From Minisyncoccia bacterium (GTDB taxonomy: Bacteria > Patescibacteriota > Minisyncoccia > Phycocordibacterales > UBA918): 64,000 bases of DNA. The notes under the pieces were generated by a model that did not search any database, had not been told where the DNA came from, and saw only the letters and a list, made by a program, of their open reading frames with translations. Location: assembly GCA_041750655.1 (NCBI GenBank), contig JBGSYZ010000011.1, forward strand, positions 65,794 through 129,793, written 5' to 3'. The position numbers and the translations under genes are program-made. Positions 851 to 57,622 of the stretch are shown one piece after another (position 1 is the first letter of the stretch; every line of letters starts with the position of its first letter).

Positions 851-1435
851 TTAGAATGTAACTTGTACGTTCTCCTTCTCTACGCTATCTGCTTCAAGCT
901 CAAAGTACTCTTCTTCTTTGAAACCAAACATCTTACCAATAACATTGCTTGGGAATGACTGAAGTGCAATTGCCAAATCCCGTACATTGCCGTTGTAGAA
1001 ACGGCGGGCGGCTTGAATCTTATTTTCTGTGTCTGACAACTCAGTTTGGAGTTGGCTGAAGTTTTGGTTAGCCTTGAGATCAGGATACGCTTCGGCAATA
1101 GCCATCAATCTTCCTAATGCCCCAGAGAGATTCGTTTCAGCTCCCGCCATAGCCTGGATTTGTTCAGGAGTGATGTTTGAAGGATCAACGTGTACCTTAG
1201 TTGCTTCCGCCCGAGCAGCTACCACAGCATCAAAAGTCTCCCGCTCGTGACTCGCATACCCTTTTACAGTTTCCACCAAGTTGGGAATTAGGTCATAGCG
1301 GCGCTTTAGTTGTACATCAATGTCGGCCCACGCTTCTTTGGTACGTTGTACCAACTTTACAAAGTTGTTGTAGGCAAAGATAGCCCAAAACACCGCTACA
1401 GCTATTATCCCTAAAATGATCCACATAGTCGTCAT
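851..1435 (-). CDS. lemA: LemA family protein
   Basis: 194 aa with an N-terminal TM helix. The full-length pattern (WADIDVQLKRRYDLIPNLVETVKGYASHE ... RRFYNGNVRDLAIALQSFPSNVIG) is typical of LemA. Confidence 0.85.
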   Translation of the reverse strand: MTTMWIILGIIAVAVFWAIFAYNNFVKLVQRTKEAWADIDVQLKRRYDLIPNLVETVKGYASHERETFDAVVAARAEATKVHVDPSNITPEQIQAMAGAETNLSGALGRLMAIAEAYPDLKANQNFSQLQTELSDTENKIQAARRFYNGNVRDLAIALQSFPSNVIGKMFGFKEEEYFELEADSVEKENVQVTF

Positions 1436-1561
1436 AAAATAAATCTAGTTTATTCAGTAATGTGAATATATTAGCATGTTGTGGAAAACTTGACACATAC
1501 GCGAGAAGTATTATCTTGTTTTTAGAGTTCGACACCCGTTTCATAGAAAAAAGGTGACACA

Positions 1562-16630: not shown

Positions 16631-17641
16631 TTACTTTTCCCTAAAGAGGGTTTTTCCCTTGTCCCACATTTCGTTGTGACCTTGTAAGTGCAGCCAGTAC
16701 CACCATTCCGCGCCCCAAAGATATTGCTTCTCAAAACGAGTGTCTTTGGCATACGTAAGAATATCTTCAAACTTTGCCAAGTCCATCCGTGAGTACTGAG
16801 TTTCTATATCTACTTCAGTTACTGGTTGTAAGAGCCATGGTTCAGCCGAAAGTTCAATCAACATGGTTTCCTTTTTGCCAAACAAAAGAGCCATCGTATT
16901 GGCTTTCACCCGATAAAACCATGGTGGTAAAATTGACCGGAATTGTCCTAGTTCAGGGTTCCAAAAATGCACGTATACACTCGTCCCAAACGCATCACCC
17001 GCCCGGTATGGACCAATCCAAGTACCGAGATTGCCACTATCGGTCACTAAAAGTGGGCGCGAACTATCTAGTGCTCGCATAAATTCCACTTCAGCTTTAA
17101 AAAATTTTTTATCAAACTCGCCACAATGTTCTTTAGCAAAAACTTCTAGATATGGTTCGTTTTCTACCTGCCAATATTTTATGGCTGGATTATCTTTATA
17201 CCGCTCTACCACCGCTTGCATGTACGTGAGAATTTCTTGCTGTTGTTCGTTCCATGTCATTTCTTGTGCCCACGCAGGAACATGACACTCTGGCCATCGA
17301 GGCAATCTCCGACCAACAGCTAAAATAACATCGGCGCCGGCCGCCTCAGCTTTAGCTAATTGGTAGTCCATCTCTACCCAATTGTATTCATCCTTTTTAG
17401 GTTCAATCATCGGCCAATGGGCAGCCAAACGTAAGTGTCGCACCTGAAGTTCGTCGATAATAGCGTCGTAGGTCTCCAGCCAATCAAGACCAAGTTCATT
17501 GGCATACATAGTATTGAAAGACATACCATATTGGATTCTCTCTGGCTTTTTCTTGAGAGACAGGACAAAAACTATCACCAACAGAATAATGACCAAGATG
17601 ACCAATTTTTTCAAACAGCTTTTAAGGCTACACATCAACAA
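16631..17641 (-). CDS. glycoside hydrolase, clan GH-A TIM-barrel (GH5/GH113 mannanase-like), membrane-anchored
   Basis: N-terminal TM anchor. WQVENEPY contains the clan GH-A catalytic NEP motif. HWPMIEP...EYNW resembles the start of a cellulase/mannanase-type barrel. Confidence 0.5.
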   Translation of the reverse strand: MLMCSLKSCLKKLVILVIILLVIVFVLSLKKKPERIQYGMSFNTMYANELGLDWLETYDAIIDELQVRHLRLAAHWPMIEPKKDEYNWVEMDYQLAKAEAAGADVILAVGRRLPRWPECHVPAWAQEMTWNEQQQEILTYMQAVVERYKDNPAIKYWQVENEPYLEVFAKEHCGEFDKKFFKAEVEFMRALDSSRPLLVTDSGNLGTWIGPYRAGDAFGTSVYVHFWNPELGQFRSILPPWFYRVKANTMALLFGKKETMLIELSAEPWLLQPVTEVDIETQYSRMDLAKFEDILTYAKDTRFEKQYLWGAEWWYWLHLQGHNEMWDKGKTLFREK

Positions 17642-18566
17642 ATAATATCACAAAGCCGATCGCGATTACGGCTACGTATAAAGCTTTACGGAAGATTGTC
17701 TTAGCATCTTCATCATTTTCTCCAGCTGTAATTGGCGTGAACTTACCAACGATTACACCGAGAAAGAGAATAAATACAAATTTCAAACCATCAGTAGCCT
17801 GTACCACTGATACTTCTCCTAAGTCAGTAGCTTTTAAGAGCAAGAAAGCGGCCACTCCAGCCAGAACCTTAGTGTGTAAAACCAAAACTCCTGCCCTTCT
17901 AGTAGTGTTTTTGGTTTGTTCTTTAATTTTTTCAAAATAAACCGGCACTAAAAGTAAAGTAAGCGCAAAAACTACAAAACTTACTCGAGTCCAAAAAAAG
18001 CCATCGTCAAAATTAGTCTCTAAAAACAAACCTTTCATGGTTATATAATGGAGAGCAAAGAAAATACCACTATGTAAGGTATTTAAAAACACTTTTACTT
18101 TAAACCGACCAGTTGATACTAGTAATGTTCCAGTAGACAGAAGGGCTACTCCCCAAATGAAATTCTGTGTCAAATTACCGCCCAAAAACAAATAGGTCAT
18201 TCCAAATGACGAAACGGCTGATACAGCGCCCACCACCGGCATAACATCGGATGCATCAGCATGTTTAAGGGCGTCGTACATGGACACCAACGCAAAGAAG
18301 AAGGTATAGGCCGCCAAGAGCGACATCCCTACTACCTGAATGGTGGGAGATTTAACGTTATCAAAATTTGGTAAACCAAGTTCGCCCAAACCGGGTATGA
18401 GACTGATAAAATACACCACCACCCAACCACCGGTTACTAAACACGAATAAAAAGCATAGACAAAAGGTCGCGGCAACACCCGTTCGTCTGACACAATGAA
18501 TTTATCTAAAATCGCAACAACCGCGTTAAAAAATTGCGCTGTGGCCGCGAGGAATAACCAGGTCAT
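17628..18566 (-). CDS. polytopic membrane protein (about 9-10 TM)
   Basis: 312 aa and highly hydrophobic. It sits between two glycoside hydrolase genes, so a sugar transporter or DMT-like protein is possible. Confidence 0.4.
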   Translation of the reverse strand: MTWLFLAATAQFFNAVVAILDKFIVSDERVLPRPFVYAFYSCLVTGGWVVVYFISLIPGLGELGLPNFDNVKSPTIQVVGMSLLAAYTFFFALVSMYDALKHADASDVMPVVGAVSAVSSFGMTYLFLGGNLTQNFIWGVALLSTGTLLVSTGRFKVKVFLNTLHSGIFFALHYITMKGLFLETNFDDGFFWTRVSFVVFALTLLLVPVYFEKIKEQTKNTTRRAGVLVLHTKVLAGVAAFLLLKATDLGEVSVVQATDGLKFVFILFLGVIVGKFTPITAGENDEDAKTIFRKALYVAVIAIGFVILFVDV

Positions 18567-18570
18567 ATAG

Positions 18571-19779
18571 TTATTCTACCTTGCTGTACTTCTCAATAAG
18601 CTCTTTATACACCCACGCGCTGGGGCGAATTTTACGCTCCAAAGTTTCGTAATCTATTTCTATCAACCCAAATTTTTTCTCAAACCCGAGTGCCCACTCG
18701 TAGTTATCCATCAAGGACCAGTACATGTGACCATGGACATCTATTCCTTCTTTGAGAGCTCGTTCAACACCCTCAACTTGTTTCGTAATGTACTCAGCGC
18801 GATCAGAGTCGTCATCATCAGCAATACCGGCTTCGGAAACATATAGAGGTTTATTATAGCGCGACATAAGAGCCAAGGCTTCATATATTCGTTCAGGAGT
18901 ATAATTCCAACCCATATCTGTTTTTCTATTCGTTAACTCTATACCATATTGTGAAGCTTGATAAAAATTTACACCGATTTCATCAGTATATCTATATACT
19001 CGACGTGTAAACCTATGATTTTGAAAGAAATTACTAAGTACTGCATGAAACTTATTTACAAAACCTTTTGGAATTAAATAAACATGTATATGTTTAACAA
19101 AACCAACTTTTGCATTCGGCTGGATATTTTTGATTCTTTTATAAGCAAGAATATGTGCTCTAGAAAGGTTCTTAACCACTTTAAAATAATTTAATAAAGT
19201 TAATGCCTTGGAACGTTTTTTTATAACTTTGCCAGTATAACTTCTTTGCCACGGTTTTTTACTAACTTTAAAAGGTGGCCACTCTCCATTGATCCAACCT
19301 TGTGTAGCAAAAACATTCGGTTCATTCATGGTAGAAAAATGGTCGCACAAATCCCCAAGTTCCGACGCGACAAAAACTGCATACCGAGCAAAAATTTCTG
19401 GTGAATCCTTTCTTTCGAATCCACCCGACTCCGAGAACCATAATGGCTGGGTAAAGTGCCAAATAGTTACGAAAGGTTTAAGGTTGCGCGCCTGAAGGGT
19501 GCGCAATACCTCCCGATAGTGTTCAATTGCCTCTTTATTAAACGTACCCTCTTCTGGTTCGATTCTAGCCCATTCTACGGAGAAACGATGAGCAGTATGA
19601 CCAAGTTCTTTAGCAAGATCAAAATCAGCCTCGAAGCGATGGTAGTGGTCACAAGCCCGGCCACAGGGCGGCACTCGTCCTTCGCGCGCGGCCTTCGCCC
19701 AATCACAATTTTCTATCCCACCTTCTACCTGATATGAAGCCGTGGCTGCGCCCCAGTAAAAATTCTTCGGAAATTTCAT
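18571..19779 (-). CDS. glycoside hydrolase family 1 (beta-glucosidase/beta-galactosidase-like)
   Basis: FYWGAATASYQVEGG is the GH1 N-terminal signature. The acid/base NEP lies in STMNEPNVF. The nucleophile region is YVSEAG. Confidence 0.8.
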   Translation of the reverse strand: MKFPKNFYWGAATASYQVEGGIENCDWAKAAREGRVPPCGRACDHYHRFEADFDLAKELGHTAHRFSVEWARIEPEEGTFNKEAIEHYREVLRTLQARNLKPFVTIWHFTQPLWFSESGGFERKDSPEIFARYAVFVASELGDLCDHFSTMNEPNVFATQGWINGEWPPFKVSKKPWQRSYTGKVIKKRSKALTLLNYFKVVKNLSRAHILAYKRIKNIQPNAKVGFVKHIHVYLIPKGFVNKFHAVLSNFFQNHRFTRRVYRYTDEIGVNFYQASQYGIELTNRKTDMGWNYTPERIYEALALMSRYNKPLYVSEAGIADDDDSDRAEYITKQVEGVERALKEGIDVHGHMYWSLMDNYEWALGFEKKFGLIEIDYETLERKIRPSAWVYKELIEKYSKVE

Positions 19780-34503: not shown

Positions 34504-34574
34504 TGCCGGATCGTCTAATGGTAGGACACATGGTTTTGGTCCATGGTATCTAGGTTCGAGCCCTAGTCCGGCAG
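34504..34574 (+). tRNA. tRNA-Gln (anticodon UUG)
   Basis: Cloverleaf folded by hand: acceptor TGCCGGA/TCCGGCA with U1:A72, anticodon stem CATGG/CCATG, loop TTTTGGT, T-arm CTAGG-TTCGAGC-CCTAG, discriminator G. CCA is not encoded. Confidence 0.8.
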
Positions 34575-34722
34575 CACAAACAAGGAGCAAAATGAGTAGC
34601 ATTTTGTGACTATGTTTTGCTAGCCTGACTAGGGCTCGAAAAGCTTTTGAGATAGATTTGACTGGAAGGAAAATATATCCAAAAGGTATACTGTCCATGT
34701 AATGGAAGAGCCCTCGAAAAGG
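34575..34722 (+). repeat. tRNA-Gln-linked repeat unit 1 (about 150 nt; inverted copy of the tRNA T-arm/acceptor 3' segment at its 5' side; degenerate att-like copy at its 3' end)
   Basis: The unit shares long identical stretches with unit 2 at 35277-35437. GACTAGGGCTCGAA is the reverse complement of the tRNA segment TTCGAGCCCTAGTC. Confidence 0.6.
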
Positions 34723-34868
34723 TTCGTCAGATATTTCTGAAAGAAATACCGACAACCTGTACTGCTCGTGTAACGAGAGAGGTCCCCAGTACGGCAACAA
34801 TATTGACTTTTATAAAAAAGTATTTTAAAGTACAGAAAGATTTTTAGATTTTTTCTTCTTGAGAGGAC

Positions 34869-35186
34869 ATGGTCATGACAGACAATAATGAAGTTGTGAA
34901 AGAGAAGCTTTTGCGACTTGCTCAGCAACGTGCCAGAAACTCAGTCATCGCATTCAGGCGCCAGAGTGATTCAGGTATTCACGAAGGGAGGGTTCGTGCC
35001 GACAAAGTCTGGGGTGGACAACAACAAGAACTTGCAGCAACACTGCCCGAGGACGACCCACTTCGCGAGGTGGTTGAGTTTATCGGGAAACTCGATGTGA
35101 TTAGCCCGCCGCAACATCTCGTCTCCAAGATTCCCCAGAAATCAGGAGTAACACTAGGTGATGTGTGGCCTGATTCTGAAGATTGA
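34869..35186 (+). CDS. hypothetical protein (105 aa), cargo ORF between repeat units, visibly higher GC than flanks
   Basis: Clean ORF followed by the strong terminator at 35203-35246. No family recognised. Confidence 0.45.
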   Translation: MVMTDNNEVVKEKLLRLAQQRARNSVIAFRRQSDSGIHEGRVRADKVWGGQQQELAATLPEDDPLREVVEFIGKLDVISPPQHLVSKIPQKSGVTLGDVWPDSED

Positions 35187-35202
35187 GTGAACTCTGAACT
35201 CA

Positions 35203-35246
35203 AGAGCCGTTTAGTACCGAAAGGGGAAAACGGCTCTTTCATTTTA
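35203..35246 (+). terminator. Rho-independent terminator (GAGCCGTTT...AAACGGCTC + T-run)
   Basis: Read directly. Confidence 0.65.
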
Positions 35247-35276
35247 TATATAAGTTCCAACCTCGTCCCAGACGGC

Positions 35277-35437
35277 CAGCACAAACAAGGAGCAAAATGA
35301 GTAGCATTTTGTGACTATGTTTTGCTAGCCTGACTAGGGCTCGAAAAGCTTTTGTGACAGATTCGACCAGAGAGAGAATATGTCCAAAAGGTATACTGGT
35401 CATGTAATGACCGAGACCCCTAGTCCGGTCCGGCAGC
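35277..35437 (+). repeat. tRNA-Gln-linked repeat unit 2, ending in direct repeat of tRNA 3' end (GAGACCCCTAGTCCGGTCCGGCAGC)
   Basis: Near-identical to unit 1 over CAGCACAAACAAGGAGCAAAATGAGTAGCATTTTGTGACTATGTTTTGCTAGCCTGACTAGGGCTCGAAAAGCTTTTG. Confidence 0.65.
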
Positions 35438-35539
35438 CAATTAATATTAACTTTATTTTTCAACGCTGGTTCGGTTCGAGTACTTAGTTAAAACAGAAAA
35501 CCCACCGACGGCGGGAATTCCGTGGCGGGTATGTGTGCC

Positions 35540-35746
35540 TCAGCCGTGCAGAGTGTATTTACCGACCGAGTTAAAAATCAGCGACACTTCCTGAGGATTG
35601 AAGCCCAGATCAGCGACTTCTTTAAGAGTGAGGATGGTCAGCTGCCCCCAGCCAGTGATTCCTTCTTTTGTAAGACGGGAAACAATATCTTCAGAAAGTC
35701 CCATTTTAGAAACAGACAGGTTGTCGTCTCGTTCACTCCAGGGCAT
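35540..35746 (-). CDS. hypothetical small protein (68 aa), possible helix-hairpin-helix fold; cargo ORF
   Basis: LSEDIVSRLTKEGITGWGQLTILTLKEVADLGF resembles HhH/RNAP-alpha-CTD-like motifs. It lies between repeat units 2 and 3. Confidence 0.35.
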   Translation of the reverse strand: MPWSERDDNLSVSKMGLSEDIVSRLTKEGITGWGQLTILTLKEVADLGFNPQEVSLIFNSVGKYTLHG

Positions 35747-35896
35747 GTTAGTCTCCTATTCAAGTTATCTTTCGAAAAACTAACACGATTTTACAAAAGT
35801 TTCAACATCATCCCAGACAGCCAGCTTGAGAAAATACGCACCGCATGGGGCGATTTTCATTCAAGCTGCCGGAAGAAAGTGCTGGGAGCACTTTCG

Positions 35897-35998
35897 TCTA
35901 GGGCTCGAAAAGCTTTTGAGTTATTTCTGGAAGTATTGAACAGAAATAGCTAAAAGGTATACTGGTCATGTAATGACCGAGACCCCTAGTCCGGCAGC
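35897..35998 (+). repeat. tRNA-Gln-linked repeat unit 3 (3' two-thirds of the unit), ending in direct repeat of tRNA 3' end (GAGACCCCTAGTCCGGCAGC)
   Basis: It matches units 1 and 2 from TAGGGCTCGAAAAGCTTTTG onward. Confidence 0.6.
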
Positions 35999-36077
35999 AC
36001 TTAACAAAAAAGTAGAGCTTTTCTGTCTTCTATGCATAGTAAGTTGAAAACAAATCTACTCGGTATATACTGCGGGT

Positions 36078-50995: not shown

Positions 50996-51077
50996 GCCGC
51001 GGTGGCGGAATTGGTAGACGCGTACGACTCAAAATCGTATCTCGCAAGGGGTGAGGGTTCGATTCCCTCCCGCGGCA
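50996..51077 (+). tRNA. tRNA-Leu (anticodon CAA), type II with long variable arm
   Basis: Folded by hand: acceptor GCCGCGG/CCGCGGC, anticodon stem TACGA/TCGTA, loop CTCAAAA, variable arm TCTCGCAAGGGGTGAG, T-arm GAGGG-TTCGATT-CCCTC, discriminator A. Confidence 0.8.
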
Positions 51078-51128
51078 CTATGGGTGGAAATGATATACCG
51101 TTCGACAGTCTCCCAGACTGTCTCACCA

Positions 51129-51179
51129 ACTCAAAATCGTATGCTTCACGGCATGAGGGTTCGACCCCCTCCCGCGGCA
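51129..51179 (+). repeat. duplicated 3' portion of tRNA-Leu (anticodon-loop 3' side through acceptor 3' end), diverged in variable arm and T-loop
   Basis: ACTCAAAATCGTA...GAGGGTTCGACCCCCTCCCGCGGCA parallels tRNA positions 34-76. No matching 5' half lies upstream. Confidence 0.5.
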
Positions 51180-51223
51180 CAAATGGATTGGAGAAAAGTA
51201 TTAATTGAAAGTGATGTCTTATA

Positions 51224-52923: not shown

Positions 52924-53027
52924 TTTAAAGCGGTTTTTTAAGTAGTATGTTGAGCACATAAATAAACCGTGTTTAGTAAGTACATACGGAGATTTGTGCG
53001 TTAAAGAATTTAATTTAAGTTAGAGTG

Positions 53028-53195
53028 TGTACTGCACTCAACTTAAACAATGTGACGGCAAGAGGAGACAAGCGAAAGTTGGGGTAAGTTTTTCACTCAA
53101 CTTAAATTGCGTCCCAGACATTGTCTGCAAGAGGATGTGAGTAAGAGTTGGCGTGCGGATTGCACTCAACTTAAATCGCGCCCCGCGCAATTTAA
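53028..53195 (+). repeat. three direct copies of CACTCAACTTAAA at about 63-68-nt spacing, each followed by a local hairpin, immediately upstream of tRNA-Trp; preceded by an inverted partial copy (AATTTAAGTTAGAGTG)
   Basis: Read directly. Units 1 and 2 also share GCAAGAGGA and end in AGTTGG. Confidence 0.55.
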
Positions 53196-53266
53196 GGGCC
53201 TATAGTTTAGTGGTAGAATGCTGGTCTCCAAAACCAGCGGCCGTGGTTCGAGTCCACGTGGGCCCG
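53196..53266 (+). tRNA. tRNA-Trp (anticodon CCA)
   Basis: Acceptor GGGCCTA/TGGGCCC (one G-U), anticodon stem CTGGT/ACCAG, loop CTCCAAA, T-arm CGTGG-TTCGAGT-CCACG, discriminator G. CCA is not encoded. Confidence 0.85.
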
Positions 53267-53465
53267 CAGCAGCAAAAGAAAATGACCGAAACAGATGTTT
53301 CGGTCATTTTCTTTTAGCAAGCCAACTGCTTGGCTTGCGGCTGCCGCGGGAGGCGGAGCGCTGTGAGAAATTCATTTCTAGAATTTCGAACCGCGAGCCG
53401 GGGTCGAAGGTACTTAGTAGAATCAGAGCAAAGCGAATGATTATACTTAGTAACCTGTGACCGCC
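53267..53465 (+). repeat. tRNA-trailer structured repeat, copy A (terminator hairpin + conserved hairpin AGCAAGCCAA-CTGC-TTGGCTTGC + segment complementary to tRNA-Trp 3' end + about 100-nt conserved tail)
   Basis: Aligned by eye to copies B and C. GGCTGCCGCGGG is complementary to the tRNA-Trp 3' end CCCGCAGCAGC with one mismatch. Confidence 0.65.
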
Positions 53466-53528
53466 ATTGAAAACATCCAGCATACACTGGGTATTTTTTA
53501 CCCCACATATCAGTTCAGAACTTTAGTA

Positions 53529-53556
53529 TTGACAAAATATTATTTTAGTGTATTAT
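53529..53556 (+). promoter_or_regulatory. sigma-70-type promoter TTGACA-16nt-TATTAT driving the small high-GC ORF
   Basis: Read directly. A GGAGCA RBS lies 8 nt before the ATG at 53592. Confidence 0.6.
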
Positions 53557-53591
53557 GTGTTTCAGGTAATACAACGGTAGGAGCACCGACA

Positions 53592-53840
53592 ATGGAAGAT
53601 ACCGACCTCACCATACAGCAGATGGATCGCGGACCCTTCGAGGGCAAGTGGTTCTGTCACCGCAACGAAGGCATGGAGTACCTCCATTCCGACGGCTCGT
53701 GGCAGATGATGGCTGGCAAAACGGCCTACTTCGACTCCGAAGAGGACATCGAGGCCCTGCTCGACCGGCTGGACGAGGACGCCGGACAGGCCTACCTCGA
53801 CTTCCAGGAAGAACAGGTAGGTCGCACGGGCTATCCGTGA
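53592..53840 (+). CDS. hypothetical acidic small protein (82 aa) of atypically high GC; MEDTDLTIQQMDRGPFEGKWFCHRNEGMEYLHSDGSWQMMAGKTAYFDSEEDIEALLDRLDEDAGQAYLDFQEEQVGRTGYP
   Basis: I chose the internal start because it has a consensus promoter and an SD. The GC content is visibly far above the flanks (about 60% by eye, not computed). The overlapping antisense and out-of-frame ORFs here are artefacts of the high GC. Confidence 0.5.
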   Translation: MEDTDLTIQQMDRGPFEGKWFCHRNEGMEYLHSDGSWQMMAGKTAYFDSEEDIEALLDRLDEDAGQAYLDFQEEQVGRTGYP

Positions 53841-53993
53841 TTCGACCAATCGGCTCCCAACAAGCCGTCCACCACTCTTTGAAAGAGTCGGTTGGGCGGC
53901 TCTTTTGTTTTTATGTCACAAACTCCCGCAACACCTGAATACTCGACTTGATACACTCCTTCTCCCTATACAGTTCTGAAAGCCACATTTCTT

Positions 53994-54183
53994 GCCCGCC
54001 GAGGTACAAAAGAAAAAACTGATGCTTAAGCATCAGTCTTTTCTTTTGTAGCAAGCAAACTGCTTTGCTTGCGTGCCTCGGCGGGAGACGGAGACATGTT
54101 TCTTCTCCTTTCAAGATAAGAAATAGTCGAGTCCGGGGAGGAAGTTCTTATGAGCGTAAGCGAATTAGAAACTTGACCCCGCC
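53994..54183 (+). repeat. structured repeat, copy B (no tRNA upstream; the long-range stem pairs GCCCGCCGAGGTAC with GTGCCTCGGCGGG)
   Basis: Same architecture as copies A and C. Hairpin 1 is AACTGATGCTTAAGCATCAGT. The conserved hairpin is GTAGCAAGCAAA-CTGC-TTTGCTTGC. Confidence 0.6.
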
Positions 54184-54209
54184 AAAAATATTATAAAACA
54201 CAAAAATCC

Positions 54210-55298
54210 TTACCAAGCTACGTGAAGGTGAGTACCGCTACCAGCATTGTGTATCAAAGCTTCTCTTGCTCCGTTAGACTTGGCCCACTGCTGAGCAGCT
54301 TGCATTTGTGCTTGTGTCCCCACAAAATCTGCCGCTCGGCCAGTTAAATGGTATGAGGTTGAAACCCCGCCAGCATTGGCATTTTGGGTTGCTGTCCGAT
54401 ATCCGCTAGTAACAGTTAAACCAAAATTATTTGCAATATATTGCACATTACTTACAATACCACTATCAAATTGTCTGCCACTATAACTAGTTAGTGAACC
54501 ACTAGGACTAACTGTAGAAGTAAATCCACTATTAAATACACACGAACCAAATGCGTCAAAAGTATAGCCGGGTGGGCAACTACCCCCGGGTGACTGCAGT
54601 ATCGGCCCAGAAGCAACCACACACGAACCAAATGCGTCCATGGTATACCATTGTGGACACTGGCCTCCTGCTGAAGGTAACACTACCGTTTGAATACACG
54701 TGCCAAATGAATCCATAGCATACCCAAGTGGACAATGACCTCCTGGTGAAGGTAAAACTGACTGCTGCTGGTTGGTTGGGTCAAACGGTTGAACAGCAAT
54801 TACCATTTGCCACTCAGATGATCCAGGCAAAACAGCTGTTCCGTCATTTAATTGAACCTGACTTGAACAAGTAATTTGATTCATTTGATTCCACGGCATT
54901 GGGGAGTTGGTACCAAATTGCACTTCACCGTTTGGCAACAAAGACTTAAGCATCACGTCAATGACAAGCCACGCGGTGAGAATAATGATGAGACCAATCA
55001 GCACGTTGGTCATTACCCCTTTCCCTTTTTTAACTTGTGCGGCATTTCCAGCTGAACTAAGCATAAGCCACCCAGCATATATAAAAATAATTACTGAAAT
55101 TCCGACAGCCAAAACAATGATTATATCAGTGACGTTGTTAGCTAGTTGAACAATCTGACAGGTACCACAATCATCACCCGAACAAGGAACCAGAGGATTC
55201 GTCTGGGCACCAGTACTAAACGGTACAAATAAAACAAAAAGAAAAAAGAAAAAAGAAAATGAGATGATTTTATTTGCTGCAGAAAGTGAACAATACAT
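54210..55298 (-). CDS. secreted peptidoglycan hydrolase: N-terminal Cys-rich two-helix (T4SS/conjugative-pilin-like) domain, three GGxCPxGYxxDxFGxC repeats, C-terminal peptidase M15 (zinc D-Ala-D-Ala carboxypeptidase/endopeptidase) domain
   Basis: M15 motifs SYHLTGRAADF (SxHxxGxAxD) and THLHVAW (HxH). The N-terminal PLVPCSGDDCGTCQIV plus two hydrophobic helices are shared with the adjacent paralog. Confidence 0.6.
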   Translation of the reverse strand: MYCSLSAANKIISFSFFFFLFVLFVPFSTGAQTNPLVPCSGDDCGTCQIVQLANNVTDIIIVLAVGISVIIFIYAGWLMLSSAGNAAQVKKGKGVMTNVLIGLIIILTAWLVIDVMLKSLLPNGEVQFGTNSPMPWNQMNQITCSSQVQLNDGTAVLPGSSEWQMVIAVQPFDPTNQQQSVLPSPGGHCPLGYAMDSFGTCIQTVVLPSAGGQCPQWYTMDAFGSCVVASGPILQSPGGSCPPGYTFDAFGSCVFNSGFTSTVSPSGSLTSYSGRQFDSGIVSNVQYIANNFGLTVTSGYRTATQNANAGGVSTSYHLTGRAADFVGTQAQMQAAQQWAKSNGAREALIHNAGSGTHLHVAW

Positions 55299-55307
55299 AG
55301 GAATTCA

Positions 55308-56366
55308 TTATGGCATCGGAGCTTGGCCCGCCATACCTAGAATGTTGTTTACATAGTTTCTAGTTTCAGCATAGCCGGAGTTGGCTGTACACTGCCACCA
55401 TGTTTGTCCGGGACAGGTCACACTTTGATTGAGTGCCCTTGGGCCACCATTGTAATACGCAAGAGCATTGGCCACATTACCACTACTGGCTTGTAGTCCT
55501 TGTCCAAAGTATGTCACTCCTAGCTGCATGTTTATTTGTGGGTGCGAAGTGAGATATGACTGTATTTGTGAATTGCTCATACCAGATAAATCACAAAGAC
55601 CAGTTTGTGAGCATAGTTGACTTGCAGTGCCTGGCATTATTTGAAAGATTCCAGCTGCTCCCGCGGGACTAATCGCATTAGGATTGTACCCAGACTCTTG
55701 GTACATTTGCGCTTGCAAAATCCTACAGTACGCGCCCAGACCTTGTGAGGAAGCAATGCTACACAACTGTGTCGCATACGGATCATTTGGGTTATAAGCT
55801 ACGCCGGCGGCTGTTGCCAATTGTTGCGGTGTCATTTGTGTCGCATTTAAACCAGTCGCTGTCACTCGGGGCCAGTTACTCGACCCGGGCAGATGTGCAA
55901 TACCGTCACTTAGTGGAACTTGGTTAGAACACGACACCTGATTCCATGGTAACCACTGGCCAGCAGACATCTGGACTTGACCACTATTTTTTAGAAGTGC
56001 TTTCATGCCTGTATCAATAATAAGCCAGGCCACTAACATTAAAATAAGACCGATTAAAACATTCTTAAGCATGTTCTTGGCTCGAGTGTATTCCGATGGG
56101 TTGCCACCAGAGATAAGAAGATTGAATCCTCCCCAGGCTGCGAGCAGGACTACCCCCACAATCATTATCATAATGATAAATCGCAATACCCGGTTGCCGA
56201 GAACCACAATTTGGCACGTACCGCAGTCAGTACCCGAGCAAGGCACCAGGCCGCCTGTATCTCCCACTAGTGTGTTACCAGGAATACTTTGAGCCAAGAC
56301 AAACATTGGCAGTGCCAAAGTTAAAAAACCAAGAAAATATACGAGGCCGCGCTTCATAAAATGCAT
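55308..56366 (-). CDS. secreted peptidoglycan hydrolase: N-terminal Cys-rich two-helix (pilin-like) domain fused to lytic transglycosylase (SLT/GH23) domain
   Basis: SLT motif AQMYQESGYNPNAISPAGAAGIFQIMPGTA (ES...GxxQxM). The N-terminal GGLVPCSGTDCGTCQIV plus two TM helices are paralogous to the upstream gene. Confidence 0.65.
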   Translation of the reverse strand: MHFMKRGLVYFLGFLTLALPMFVLAQSIPGNTLVGDTGGLVPCSGTDCGTCQIVVLGNRVLRFIIMIMIVGVVLLAAWGGFNLLISGGNPSEYTRAKNMLKNVLIGLILMLVAWLIIDTGMKALLKNSGQVQMSAGQWLPWNQVSCSNQVPLSDGIAHLPGSSNWPRVTATGLNATQMTPQQLATAAGVAYNPNDPYATQLCSIASSQGLGAYCRILQAQMYQESGYNPNAISPAGAAGIFQIMPGTASQLCSQTGLCDLSGMSNSQIQSYLTSHPQINMQLGVTYFGQGLQASSGNVANALAYYNGGPRALNQSVTCPGQTWWQCTANSGYAETRNYVNNILGMAGQAPMP

Positions 56367-56638
56367 GTATACTAAAATCGTACCACAGGGCCTAATAAAA
56401 AACTTTTCGATATACCCCTTTTGTGGTAACGTATGCCAACGAATTTGCTCCGTAAATTCGTTGGTTCACAATCTAAGCGTTCGAACCAAATTAAATATCT
56501 GCGTCGGTGGATGAAACAAAAACTGCTTTTTGTTTCATCTGGCGCCAGCTTAGCTGGCAGACAGCGATGTGAACGAATGTGAGCAGCTGGCAAGTGGGCC
56601 AGCACCCGCATTTGTTCACACTCTGTGTGACAACACAT

Positions 56639-56724
56639 GCGTCGGTGGTGGAGTGGTCTATCACATCAGACTGTAAATCTGACGGCTTATGCCTTCGCTG
56701 GTTCGAATCCAGCCCGGCGCACCA
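56639..56724 (+). tRNA. tRNA-Tyr (anticodon GUA), long variable arm, CCA encoded
   Basis: Acceptor GCGTCGG/CCGGCGC (one G-U), anticodon stem TCAGA/TCTGA, loop CTGTAAA, T-arm GCTGG-TTCGAAT-CCAGC, discriminator A, then CCA. Confidence 0.85.
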
Positions 56725-56919
56725 AGGTATAAGAAAAATCACTGGAATTCATTCCAGTGATTTTCTTATAGCAAGCAAACTGCTTTGCTTGCGTACCTTG
56801 GTGCGAGGCGGAAGTATGTTTTTCATTCATTCCTAGAATGAAAAACAGCTGAGCCGGGGTCGAGAGTACTTAGCAAAATAAATGCAAAGCATTTATTTTG
56901 CTTAGTAACTCGTGACCAC
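56725..56919 (+). repeat. tRNA-trailer structured repeat, copy C (terminator hairpin ATCACTGGAA-TTCA-TTCCAGTGAT + conserved hairpin AGCAAGCAAA-CTGC-TTTGCTTGC + GTACCTTGGTGCG complementary to the tRNA-Tyr 3' end + conserved tail)
   Basis: Aligned by eye to copies A and B. The tail shares GAGCCGGGGTCGA(A/G)GGTACTTAG and CTTAGTAAC(C/T)(T/C)GTGACC with copy A. Confidence 0.65.
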
Positions 56920-56983
56920 ATAAACCTTTATAATATACTATAAATAGTGTATTATTTTGTACGAAACAGTTTGGAGAAAATCG

Positions 56984-57121
56984 ATGATGTCTGAACGCGA
57001 ATATCAACGTCGCCTTGCGCCTCTTCTCGAAGAGTTGCAGAGGGTAAAGACCCAGAAGCAGAAGGACGAGATCGAGCAAAAGATGCAAGCCCTCGACCGG
57101 CAAGCGAACGGCAGCAAGTAG
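56984..57121 (+). CDS. hypothetical coiled-coil small protein (45 aa): MMSEREYQRRLAPLLEELQRVKTQKQKDEIEQKMQALDRQANGSK
   Basis: It directly follows repeat copy C. TATAAT/TATTAT -10-like elements and a GGAGAAAA RBS lie upstream. GC is elevated relative to the flanks. A hairpin plus T-run terminator lies downstream. It shares the AGTGTATTAT promoter-region motif with the ORF at 53592. Confidence 0.4.
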   Translation: MMSEREYQRRLAPLLEELQRVKTQKQKDEIEQKMQALDRQANGSK

Positions 57122-57622
57122 AGCGCAACCGCCGACCCAAGAAAGCCCCTGGCTCTCTCACGGGTCAGGCGGTTTTCTTTTACACTAATCCCACCTTCTC
57201 ACACACGTATCTAGGTAAGAAACAATACTCACTTTCTATAATTGCAGTTCTAACTTCACGCATTCCTGCGCACGCGTATAAAAATGAGCATCCTTTGGAT
57301 GCCATTTTTATTGCGTGTGCCGGGAGTACGAGACTAATGTCTCGTACGGCTGGATTCGAAGCTCCGGACGATGTTTTGAGAGCTTCATAGCTAGCAAAAC
57401 GAGGAGGAGCCGTCCAAGAAACCGAGCCTAGTTTATGAACGTAGTGAAATAAAATAGCCGGTATTCGGGGACGAAGGAAGCCGGCACACAAATTATATAC
57501 TCCCATTTTGGAGAATTTAAAATTGGCTTTAATTACGTATTGTATGAGTTAACGTCATTCTCAACTTCTTGCCAATTGCTTAAGACTATGCCAATAATAG
57601 CCGCAGAGAAGGGAGAACGAAA

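Follow-up and report, generated by a model that had tools for sequence, protein, structure and literature searches.

Several described systems place small DNA units at defined sites. Integron cassettes form arrays of mostly single-gene units and carry attC sites that fold back on one strand. Genomic islands at transfer RNA (tRNA) genes, including tycheposons, insert at the tRNA 3' end. The ends of IS200/IS605 elements and the attP site of CTX phage also act as folded single strands. In IS608, guide and target pair over about 4 nt. Here, we describe arrays of small elements behind three tRNA genes in a 64-kb window (the whole stretch of DNA analysed) of a Patescibacteria (candidate phyla radiation) chromosome. 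Two kinds of unit make up these arrays. U elements are about 190 nt long, have no open reading frame (ORF) and lie directly behind a tRNA. Cassettes span about 0.5 kb and hold a single gene with its own promoter and terminator. We lean towards the view that both were inserted successively and site-specifically behind tRNAs, by way of a folded-strand site and an enzyme encoded elsewhere.

The order is U element A, ORF82 cassette, U element B behind tRNA-Trp, and U element C, ORF45 cassette, U element D behind tRNA-Tyr. Positions of tRNAs were taken from ARAGORN and Rfam. Fold z scores compare each sequence with shuffled versions, and bit scores refer to the covariance model described below. An earlier note on this DNA had listed the two tRNAs, repeats A, B and C, two GC-rich small ORFs and a pair of hydrolase genes. 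All are present at or near the positions it gave; U element D was absent from its list.

53196-53267, plus strand: tRNA-Trp (anticodon CCA); its last bases CCCGC are the insertion core of the Trp array
53263-53468, plus strand: U element A, intact (fold z -10.6; 91 bits)
53469-54000, plus strand: ORF82 cassette, with T1 hairpin (53475-53492), TTCAGAACT (53514-53522), promoter (53529-53556), ORF (53592-53840) and terminator (53880-53907)
53994-54186, plus strand: U element B, decayed (fold z -9.7; 31.5 bits, E 1e-5)
56639-56724, plus strand: tRNA-Tyr (anticodon GTA); its 3' end GGCGCAC(CA) serves as core for the Tyr array
56716-56917, plus strand: U element C, intact (fold z -12.9; 80.6 bits)
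56918-57273, plus strand: ORF45 cassette, with promoter (56927-56955), ORF (56984-57121) and terminator (57148-57169)
57266-57489, plus strand: U element D, a diverged variant (19.7 bits, E 0.007)

Read on the tRNA strand, a U element opens with the core, which is the last bases of the tRNA. A long hairpin (P2), an optional hairpin with an ACTGC-type loop (P3), the anticore, domain II and usually a further copy of the core follow in that order. A run of A before P2 and a run of T after it are common. The anticore is the complement of the core and is split by P3; the core:anticore stem (P1) encloses P2 and P3. Domain II, about 100 nt with two hairpins, consists of a GAAAG-NC-GGAG junction, P4, GAG-NC-GGGGTCGAG, P5 (ACTTAG...CTTAGTAAC) and CGTGACC. 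The core copy generally follows the GTGACC end.

In element A, the 5' arm of P1, CCCGCAGCAGC (53263-53273), is followed by P2 (53274-53315), P3 (53316-53338) and the anticore GCGGCTGCCGCGGG (53337-53350). Domain II (53348-53462) runs to GTGACC, and the core copy CCGCCA comes next. P1 of element C pairs GGCGCACCAAGGTA (56716-56729) with TACCTTGGTGCG (56794-56805), and domain II spans 56803-56917. For element B, P1 consists of CCGCCGAGGTAC and GTGCCTCGGCGG, domain II occupies 54083-54180 and the core copy GACCCCGCC lies at 54175-54183. Element D has a P1 of GCGCACGCG and GCGTGTGC, an anti-T-arm GGCTGGATTCGAA (57348-57360), domain II at 57359-57473 and the core copy GCCGGCACAC at 57480-57489. Loci fetched from related or metagenomic genomes are labelled L002, L004 and so on. 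A near-identical D-type element, with flanks CCCGGCGCAC, lies directly behind tRNA-Tyr in L135.

Elements A, B and C have one common fold, and each folds far better than its shuffled versions. The exact P3 hairpin motif matches three times, in A, B and C, against 0.01 matches expected. In both arrays the tRNA-proximal copy is intact and the distal copy decayed (A 91 versus B 31.5 bits; C 80.6 versus D 19.7 bits). Because distal copies are more decayed, new elements probably entered at the intact tRNA end.

Relatives were fetched using MiaA as an anchor. The MiaA gene lies directly upstream of tRNA-Trp, and the relatives share 53-61% MiaA identity. Loci L132 and L138 were reached via protein homologues instead. 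Metagenome contigs were also scanned with a domain II motif, which gave at least 120 contigs. The figures below for spread, covariation, strand and target match rest on the matches listed. Among these, a same-strand tRNA stands 70-135 nt upstream in 76 of 132 domain II motif matches, and the upstream tRNAs have about 20 amino-acid identities. A covariance model, built from 67 aligned domain II sequences, found 138 and a further 45 matches in the fetched loci, often two to five per contig.

The fold of domain II is conserved by compensation. RNAalifold predicted 22 pairs in the 67 sequences, and 11 of these pairs show compensatory changes. Pair 12-66, for instance, is CG in 22 sequences, GC in 20, AU in 14 and UA in 7. 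The covarying pairs and the left half of the element lie outside the scan motif. Of 64 domain II copies, 62 fold more stably as the sense (tRNA) strand than as the antisense strand; of 64 left parts, 48 do so (p 1e-4). Furthermore, G-U pairs number 170 on the sense strand and 105 on the antisense strand. Together, the strand bias and the excess of G-U pairs point to selection on a single folded strand, be it RNA or single-stranded DNA.

The anticore fits the tRNA behind which the element lies. For 46 elements, the anticore region was compared with the 18 terminal bases of its own tRNA and with tRNA ends of other species. The own end ranked best or in the top 5% for 72-78% of the elements. The median energy of the anticore:tRNA-end duplex was -25.5 kcal/mol. 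In type-A elements, GTGACC is followed by a direct repeat of 17-24 nt that runs from the tRNA T-loop through the 3' end plus a few bases. Pairing of the anticore with this downstream repeat, so as to close domain II, was considered and rejected; where core copies differ, the anticore fits the upstream tRNA copy (L131). Compared against criteria for miniature inverted-repeat transposable elements, U elements are small and ORF-less; they lack terminal inverted repeats, and what flanks them is a 17-24-nt repeat copied from the tRNA end.

Other copies bear on how the elements change. Half elements, with the anticore end, domain II and core but no P2 or P3, stand in tandem behind a full U element in L002 (11386-11505), L005 (11320-11400) and L091 (1346-1549). 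This suggests that half elements arise by recombination between core copies. The L015 elements behind tRNA-Arg and behind tRNA-Gly share 81% identity over their variable parts, compared with 69% at the 95th percentile of different-contig pairs. Such likeness hints that elements spread inside a genome while switching target.

No described family matched the element. With Rfam 15, at gathering and lenient thresholds, only tRNAs passed in the window and six canonical loci; the best other hits were chance-level microRNA and small RNA models. A full-text literature search found no description of such an element. Viral contigs were free of matches to the P3 motif, to the strict domain II motif and to the right-arm motif of the cassettes. 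A looser motif gave at least 120 viral-contig matches, which were dismissed as chance on the basis of the covariance model. Group I introns of Patescibacteria tRNAs were also set aside as not relevant, being sited at position 35/36 of the anticodon loop (PMC13011429).

We then turned to the cassettes. The ORF82 promoter, TTGACA-16-TATTAT, agrees with 11 of 12 consensus positions; that of ORF45 is weaker (9 of 12). The GC content at third codon positions (GC3) is 0.78 for ORF82 and 0.70 for ORF45, and the host reference has a mean of 0.385 (sd 0.045). These values bear out the suggestion in the earlier note that the small GC-rich ORFs are foreign-looking cargo. Three homologues of ORF82 share 76-79% identity with it. 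Its structure model reached a predicted local distance difference test (pLDDT) score of 73, with one of five models confident, and had no fold match in PDB. Searches of the cargo ORFs against Pfam returned no family for any of them.

Cassette ends are conserved independently of the gene between them. The right arm of the ORF82 cassette ('P arm', 53905-54000) includes CAGTTCTGAAAGCC (53971-53984) and the core copy GCCCGCC (53994-54000). Trp cassettes from at least five genomes have a common left end, T1, composed of the core, a hairpin with compensatory changes, TTTACCCCA...GTTTCAGAACTT and the promoter. They also have a common right arm of about 95 nt, terminating in ...CTATACAGTTCTGAAAGCCA..TTTCTTGCCCGC. 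The genes between these ends are unrelated: ORFs of 82, 112 and 218 aa, and one for a small membrane protein (window, L002, L007, L132 and L133). Promoters akin to that of ORF82 occur in cassettes of L002, L132, L133 and L135. The ORF45 cassette has a Tyr-type right arm, with CAGTTCTAAC at 57245-57254 and the core copy CTGCGCAC at 57266-57273. This is an arm of its own but of the same design as the Trp type; it occurs in L007 as well, and as a variant in L135.

Judged by sequence, the Trp right arm closes with 28 nt that copy, in diverged form, the T-arm and acceptor 3' strand of tRNA-Trp, with GTTC..CCAC..GCCCGC in the same order. In T1, TTTCAGAACT is the complement of AGTTCTGAAA. Because the right arm copies the tRNA-Trp end and T1 holds TTTCAGAACT, joined cassette ends read core, hairpin, anticore. 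This grammar is found in both U elements and cassettes, and hence the junction can fold back on itself.

The content behind tRNA-Trp differs in every relative examined. In L004, tRNA-Trp is followed by a U element alone, with no cargo, and its P3 stem is changed on both sides. In L132, a U element and an ORF82 cassette follow; in L007, a cassette with the 218-aa ORF and then a U element. L002 has a U element, half a U element, a cassette with the small membrane ORF and another U element. L138 has a U element of a second family (family 2) and nothing else. L133, where no tRNA lies on the contig, reads U element, cassette, cassette, U element, cassette. A mobile unit that is always an ORF plus a U element, as an integron cassette is an ORF plus attC, was rejected; L132 and L133 break this rule. 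The mobile units are 0.2-0.8 kb long and confined to tRNA 3' ends.

A third array, which was not part of the earlier note, lies behind tRNA-Gln.

34504-35999, plus strand: tRNA-Gln array, in the order U element, ORF105 cassette, U element, ORF68 cassette, U element
34504-34575: tRNA-Gln
34561-34799: family-2 U element
34869-35186, plus strand: ORF105 (105 aa)
35267-35438: U element
35540-35746, minus strand: ORF68 (68 aa)
35812-35999: U element

Copies of the tRNA-Gln end, CCCTAGTCCGGCAGCA, stand at every boundary of this array. The full complement of the tRNA-Gln end, GACTAGGGCTCG, lies inside the first two units, and the third has the shorter CTAGGGCTCG. Family-2 domains follow the pattern GAAAAGGT-hairpin-ACCTGTACTG-hairpin with a GTAA loop. 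Such domains also occur behind tRNA-Tyr in L004 and behind tRNA-Trp in L138.

The following explanation is the one towards which we lean. The window would be core chromosome, with MiaA, tRNA-Trp, two pilin-domain hydrolases, tRNA-Tyr and ClpB as ancestral genes. Small elements would have been inserted successively at the 3' ends of tRNA-Trp, tRNA-Tyr and tRNA-Gln, each new arrival pushing the older ones downstream. The folded single tRNA-sense strand would be the substrate of an enzyme whose gene lies elsewhere in the genome, and the core:anticore stem would present the crossover site. Domain II, or the right arm in cassettes, may be the part bound by protein. The logic would be shared with integron attC, CTX phage attP and the ends of IS200/IS605 elements.

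Several observations weigh against this explanation. Some concern the enzyme. No integrase, transposase or HUH protein was found among about 60 ORFs of the window compared with Pfam. The window and 0.83 Mb of related loci gave no match to a regular expression for the IS200-type TnpA motif. Clustering of 1089 ORFs from 131 loci gave housekeeping neighbours, a family of helix-turn-helix (HTH) proteins and an Xer-like gene. The latter, XerC/D-like, is the sole recombinase-type neighbour of U elements and lies 3-7 kb away in four loci. No recombinase was enriched near the elements in the neighbourhood loci. No circular or excised form was seen, nor an exactly empty family-1 site at the same tRNA in a close strain. 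The elements themselves raise further points. P2 often resembles an intrinsic terminator, and the many invariant unpaired bases of domain II would also fit an RNA or protein-bound RNA. The invariance within domain II, and one G-T pair, are in part a product of the scan motif, which fixes part of that domain. In type-B elements (A and C), the terminal repeat amounts to about CCGC. Finally, L006 (1780-1830) has neither a U element nor domain II, yet its tRNA-Trp end CCCGCCA... pairs with a downstream complement, TGGTGGCGGG, as a plain hairpin. Pairing between tRNA end and flank may be a native feature of these tRNA flanks that is older than the elements.

U could instead be a gene for an RNA, or an RNA acting in cis, transcribed by read-through from the tRNA. 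Domain II would then be a structured non-coding RNA that partners a protein or works as a small ribozyme. The core:anticore stem would take part in processing of the tRNA 3' trailer, for instance as a substrate for a double-strand RNase or as an alternative fold. Each tRNA would have a copy behind it because it requires one, and the cassettes would be a separate matter. A precedent exists in the HDV-like 'theta' ribozymes, which lie directly behind phage tRNAs. This alternative agrees with the strand-specific, tRNA-sense structure and its G-U pairs, with the invariant unpaired GAAAG, CGGAG, GAG and GGGG between covarying stems, and with the fixed position behind tRNAs of nearly all identities among the matches listed. 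However, in many copies a strong P2 hairpin and T run separate the tRNA from domain II. Elements B and D and internal copies in L002, L030 and L133 have no upstream tRNA at all, and tandem or half copies occur in L076, L077, L091 and L002. The tRNA-end copy after GTGACC has no obvious RNA role, presence at the same tRNA varies among relatives, and Rfam, known small ribozymes included, gave no match. We regard an RNA function as somewhat unlikely, though it is the main alternative. A different possibility is that U is the non-coding core of nucleic-acid-guided insertion. A scaffold of about 100 nt with an exchangeable target complement of 12-20 nt would, with an unrecognised protein encoded elsewhere or a catalytic fold of its own, direct itself behind any tRNA with a matching 3' end. 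Promoter-bearing cassettes of the same grammar would be directed likewise. This proposal is doubtful.

The elements could also be leftovers of integrase-borne islands or prophages. They would then be double-stranded attL/attR scars or cis-mobilisable remnants, and their structure, made of terminators and inverted binding sites, would be incidental. The direct repeats of 17-24 nt, from the T-loop to the tRNA end, are in keeping with this; such repeats are typical of tyrosine-integrase islands, a subject on which there is an Islander paper (PMC4383910). So are the tandem accretion and decayed distal copies, as described for tycheposons, the large serine recombinase adjoining tRNA-Tyr in L002 and a duplicated tRNA-Leu 3' half in the window. 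Classical integrases, however, use one tRNA each, and a single conserved domain II lies at about 20 tRNA identities among the matches listed. The compensatory changes and strand bias speak instead for selection on a folded single strand. There are no integrase remnants in or beside any element, the units measure 0.2-0.8 kb with intact promoters and terminators, and viral contigs hold no true copies. Such an origin is improbable.

The earlier note had read the whole stretch from tRNA-Trp to tRNA-Tyr as one compact mobile island with the hydrolase pair as cargo. The tRNAs at both ends, the repeats near both ends and the secreted enzymes had favoured this. It is already contradicted, and we consider it very improbable. 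Behind each tRNA the repeats run in direct orientation; they do not enclose the hydrolases as one unit. Relatives at 53-61% MiaA identity conserve the gene order: L002, L004, L007 and L138 all retain MiaA, tRNA-Trp, pilin-domain genes and tRNA-Tyr in that sequence, and in L132 the tRNA-Trp side of the same arrangement is visible before the contig ends. Hydrolase GC3 (0.32 and 0.42) is host-like. L138 has the same pair of SLT and M15_3 genes, the SLT gene being 57% identical, but no ORF cassette: 167 nt separate tRNA-Trp from the M15 stop codon, and these contain a 115-nt ORF-less family-2 element. The synteny comparison thus divides the earlier proposal. Its island does not survive the conserved order of the hydrolases, while variable content behind the tRNAs and repeats that resemble recombination sites are both supported among the relatives compared.

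The hydrolase genes fill the interval between the Trp and Tyr arrays.

54210-55298, minus strand: M15 gene, with signal peptide, T4SS_pilin (VirB2-like) domain, three Cys-containing repeats and Peptidase_M15_3 domain (Pfam)
55308-56366, minus strand: SLT gene, with signal peptide, T4SS_pilin domain and SLT lytic transglycosylase domain (Pfam)

Both domain assignments of the earlier note hold. The T4SS_pilin domain (PF18895) scores 33.3 and 36.6 bits in the two proteins (cut-off 26.6), consistent with a module like VirB2 or pilins of the type IV secretion system (T4SS). The predicted enzymes, SLT (PF01464; 60.3 bits, cut-off 21.3) and Peptidase_M15_3 (PF08291; 43.6 bits, cut-off 23.2), are both C-terminal. 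The N-terminal parts are 44% identical across 164 aa. The architecture of T4SS_pilin plus SLT recurs in more than 20 homologues, whereas an exact look-up of the SLT protein itself returned no record. Between the pilin and peptidase domains of the M15 hydrolase (54538-54749) are three tandem repeats of about 27 aa (GG.CP.GY..D.FG.C), which may form a disulfide-stabilised linker or binding module. In L002, L004, L007 and L008, tRNA-Trp and tRNA-Tyr are 3-6 kb apart. In the first three of these, the interval contains two to four minus-strand T4SS_pilin genes, some with M15-type C-termini. No virB4 or other T4SS gene was found among about 60 ORFs of the 64-kb window compared with Pfam. A 2025 survey counted 441 tandem arrays of VirB2-like pilins in Patescibacteria (PMC12102498). 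Unlike in those arrays, both members here bear C-terminal peptidoglycan hydrolase domains (SLT and M15). The earlier note gave the pair a putative role in breaching host cell walls or as a conjugation channel. Because synteny and Pfam matches extend to the relatives and GC3 is host-like, the hydrolases are, on this genomic evidence, resident genes, ordinary for the phylum and members of the known VirB2-like pilin arrays, and not island cargo.

Structured sequences are also present on the 5' sides of both tRNAs.

53018..53175, plus strand: three hairpin units of 30 nt each, AGTTNGNGT...GCACTCAACTTAAA, in the leader that separates the MiaA stop codon from tRNA-Trp
56501..56638, plus strand: structured element 5' of tRNA-Tyr (fold z -5.9, strong)

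The leader units start at 53018, 53077 and 53146, and each terminates in CACTCAACTTAAA; the fold of this region modestly beats shuffles (z -2.6). Upstream of tRNA-Trp in L002 (11010-11110), two units terminate in a similar motif, GCACTATGCTTAAA. The first bases of the element 5' of tRNA-Tyr, GCGTCGGTGG (56501-56510), repeat the 5' end of the tRNA itself (56639-56648), and the element includes a hairpin with a P3-like ACTGC loop. Elements of the same kind occur in L007 (5248-5425) and L008 (3436-3615), and L138 has two in tandem (1290-1560, minus strand). They look like a mirror image of the 3' system.

Other features at tRNA genes were recorded alongside. The 3' half of the window's tRNA-Leu (50996-51078), from the anticodon loop onwards, recurs at 83% identity 50 nt downstream (51129-51180). 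Such a duplicate resembles the scar left where something integrated in the anticodon loop, and hardly any sequence remains between the two copies. In L002, a large serine recombinase gene (17332-19095, minus strand) is antisense to tRNA-Tyr and overlaps its 3' end. BLAST found a 125-aa fragment of it in L044 (71% identical) and a distant homologue in L077 (29%). L138 has a 148-aa ORF at the equivalent antisense position (828-1274), and the flank after tRNA-Tyr is common to L138 and L002. The serine recombinase is a different kind of mobile element with the same tRNA target in relatives. The HTH proteins form a family of about 220 aa, with an N-terminal HTH and a LAGLIDADG-like motif, LYWAEGSK (L002 16603-17370; L019, L049, L070, L086, L127 and L016). 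Each of the six complete ORFs stops 8-56 nt short of a same-strand tRNA (for Tyr, Lys or Gly) or overlaps it. No catalytic domain of Pfam matched the family, and a sequence search of the HTH protein against PDB gave nothing usable. The gene may be homing-endonuclease-like and aimed at tRNA leaders.

Patescibacteria have tiny genomes in which gene gain and loss are little known. Our results point to widespread, compact stacking of single foreign genes behind tRNAs. This would explain many 'hypothetical' small GC-rich ORFs beside tRNAs in candidate-phyla genomes, and it strikes the hydrolase pair off the list of suspected island cargo. A covariance model now exists for a structured element missing from Rfam. 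If the target complement sets the insertion site, the element would be a naturally retargetable insertion module, of interest for mobile elements and possibly as a tool.

Comparison with integrons shows likeness in form. In both, small and mostly single-gene units are arrayed, ORF-less units occur too, and the cargo genes are orphans of foreign composition. Both appear to have an imperfect, strand-specific fold-back site whose structure is conserved over its sequence, here without identified R/L boxes or extrahelical bases. Conversely, no IntI, attI or Pc lies beside the arrays (no Phage_integrase among about 60 window ORFs compared with Pfam), and the arrays stand at several tRNA 3' ends rather than on one platform. 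Integron cassettes are mostly promoterless, whereas these bear their own promoter and terminator. The site copies a tRNA end, and the U element adds a conserved domain of 100 nt.

With tRNA islands, tycheposons and cis-mobilisable elements, the arrays have in common insertion at the tRNA 3' end, restoration of the tRNA and displacement of a 3' segment as a direct repeat. As in tycheposons, new arrivals would push older ones outward, and decayed remnants persist. However, islands and tycheposons are kilobases long and carry an integrase specific for one tRNA, or derive from elements that do. Here, units of 0.2-0.8 kb have no recombinase and at most one orphan ORF, and one module with an internal target complement serves about 20 tRNA identities among the matches listed. 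Like IS200/IS605 elements, their miniature derivatives (PATEs) and CTX attP, the units have a strand-specific single-strand fold, tiny non-autonomous copies and a fixed orientation to the target. As in IS200/IS605, insertion is directly 3' of a target that can pair inside the element. The pairing here extends over 12-20 nt, in contrast to IS608; no TnpA was found in the window or the 0.83 Mb of loci, and a copy of the target closes the element. CTX phage differs in using XerCD at dif, not tRNAs. In the IS110 family, a DEDD recombinase gene lies beside a bridge RNA that pairs with target and donor through two loops. Here, no ORF of this type adjoins the elements, and the complement of the target forms part of an unbroken stem rather than a loop. 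We conclude that the repeats and cassettes together probably represent a form of tRNA-targeted or integron-like cassette system, unusual for its built-in target complement.

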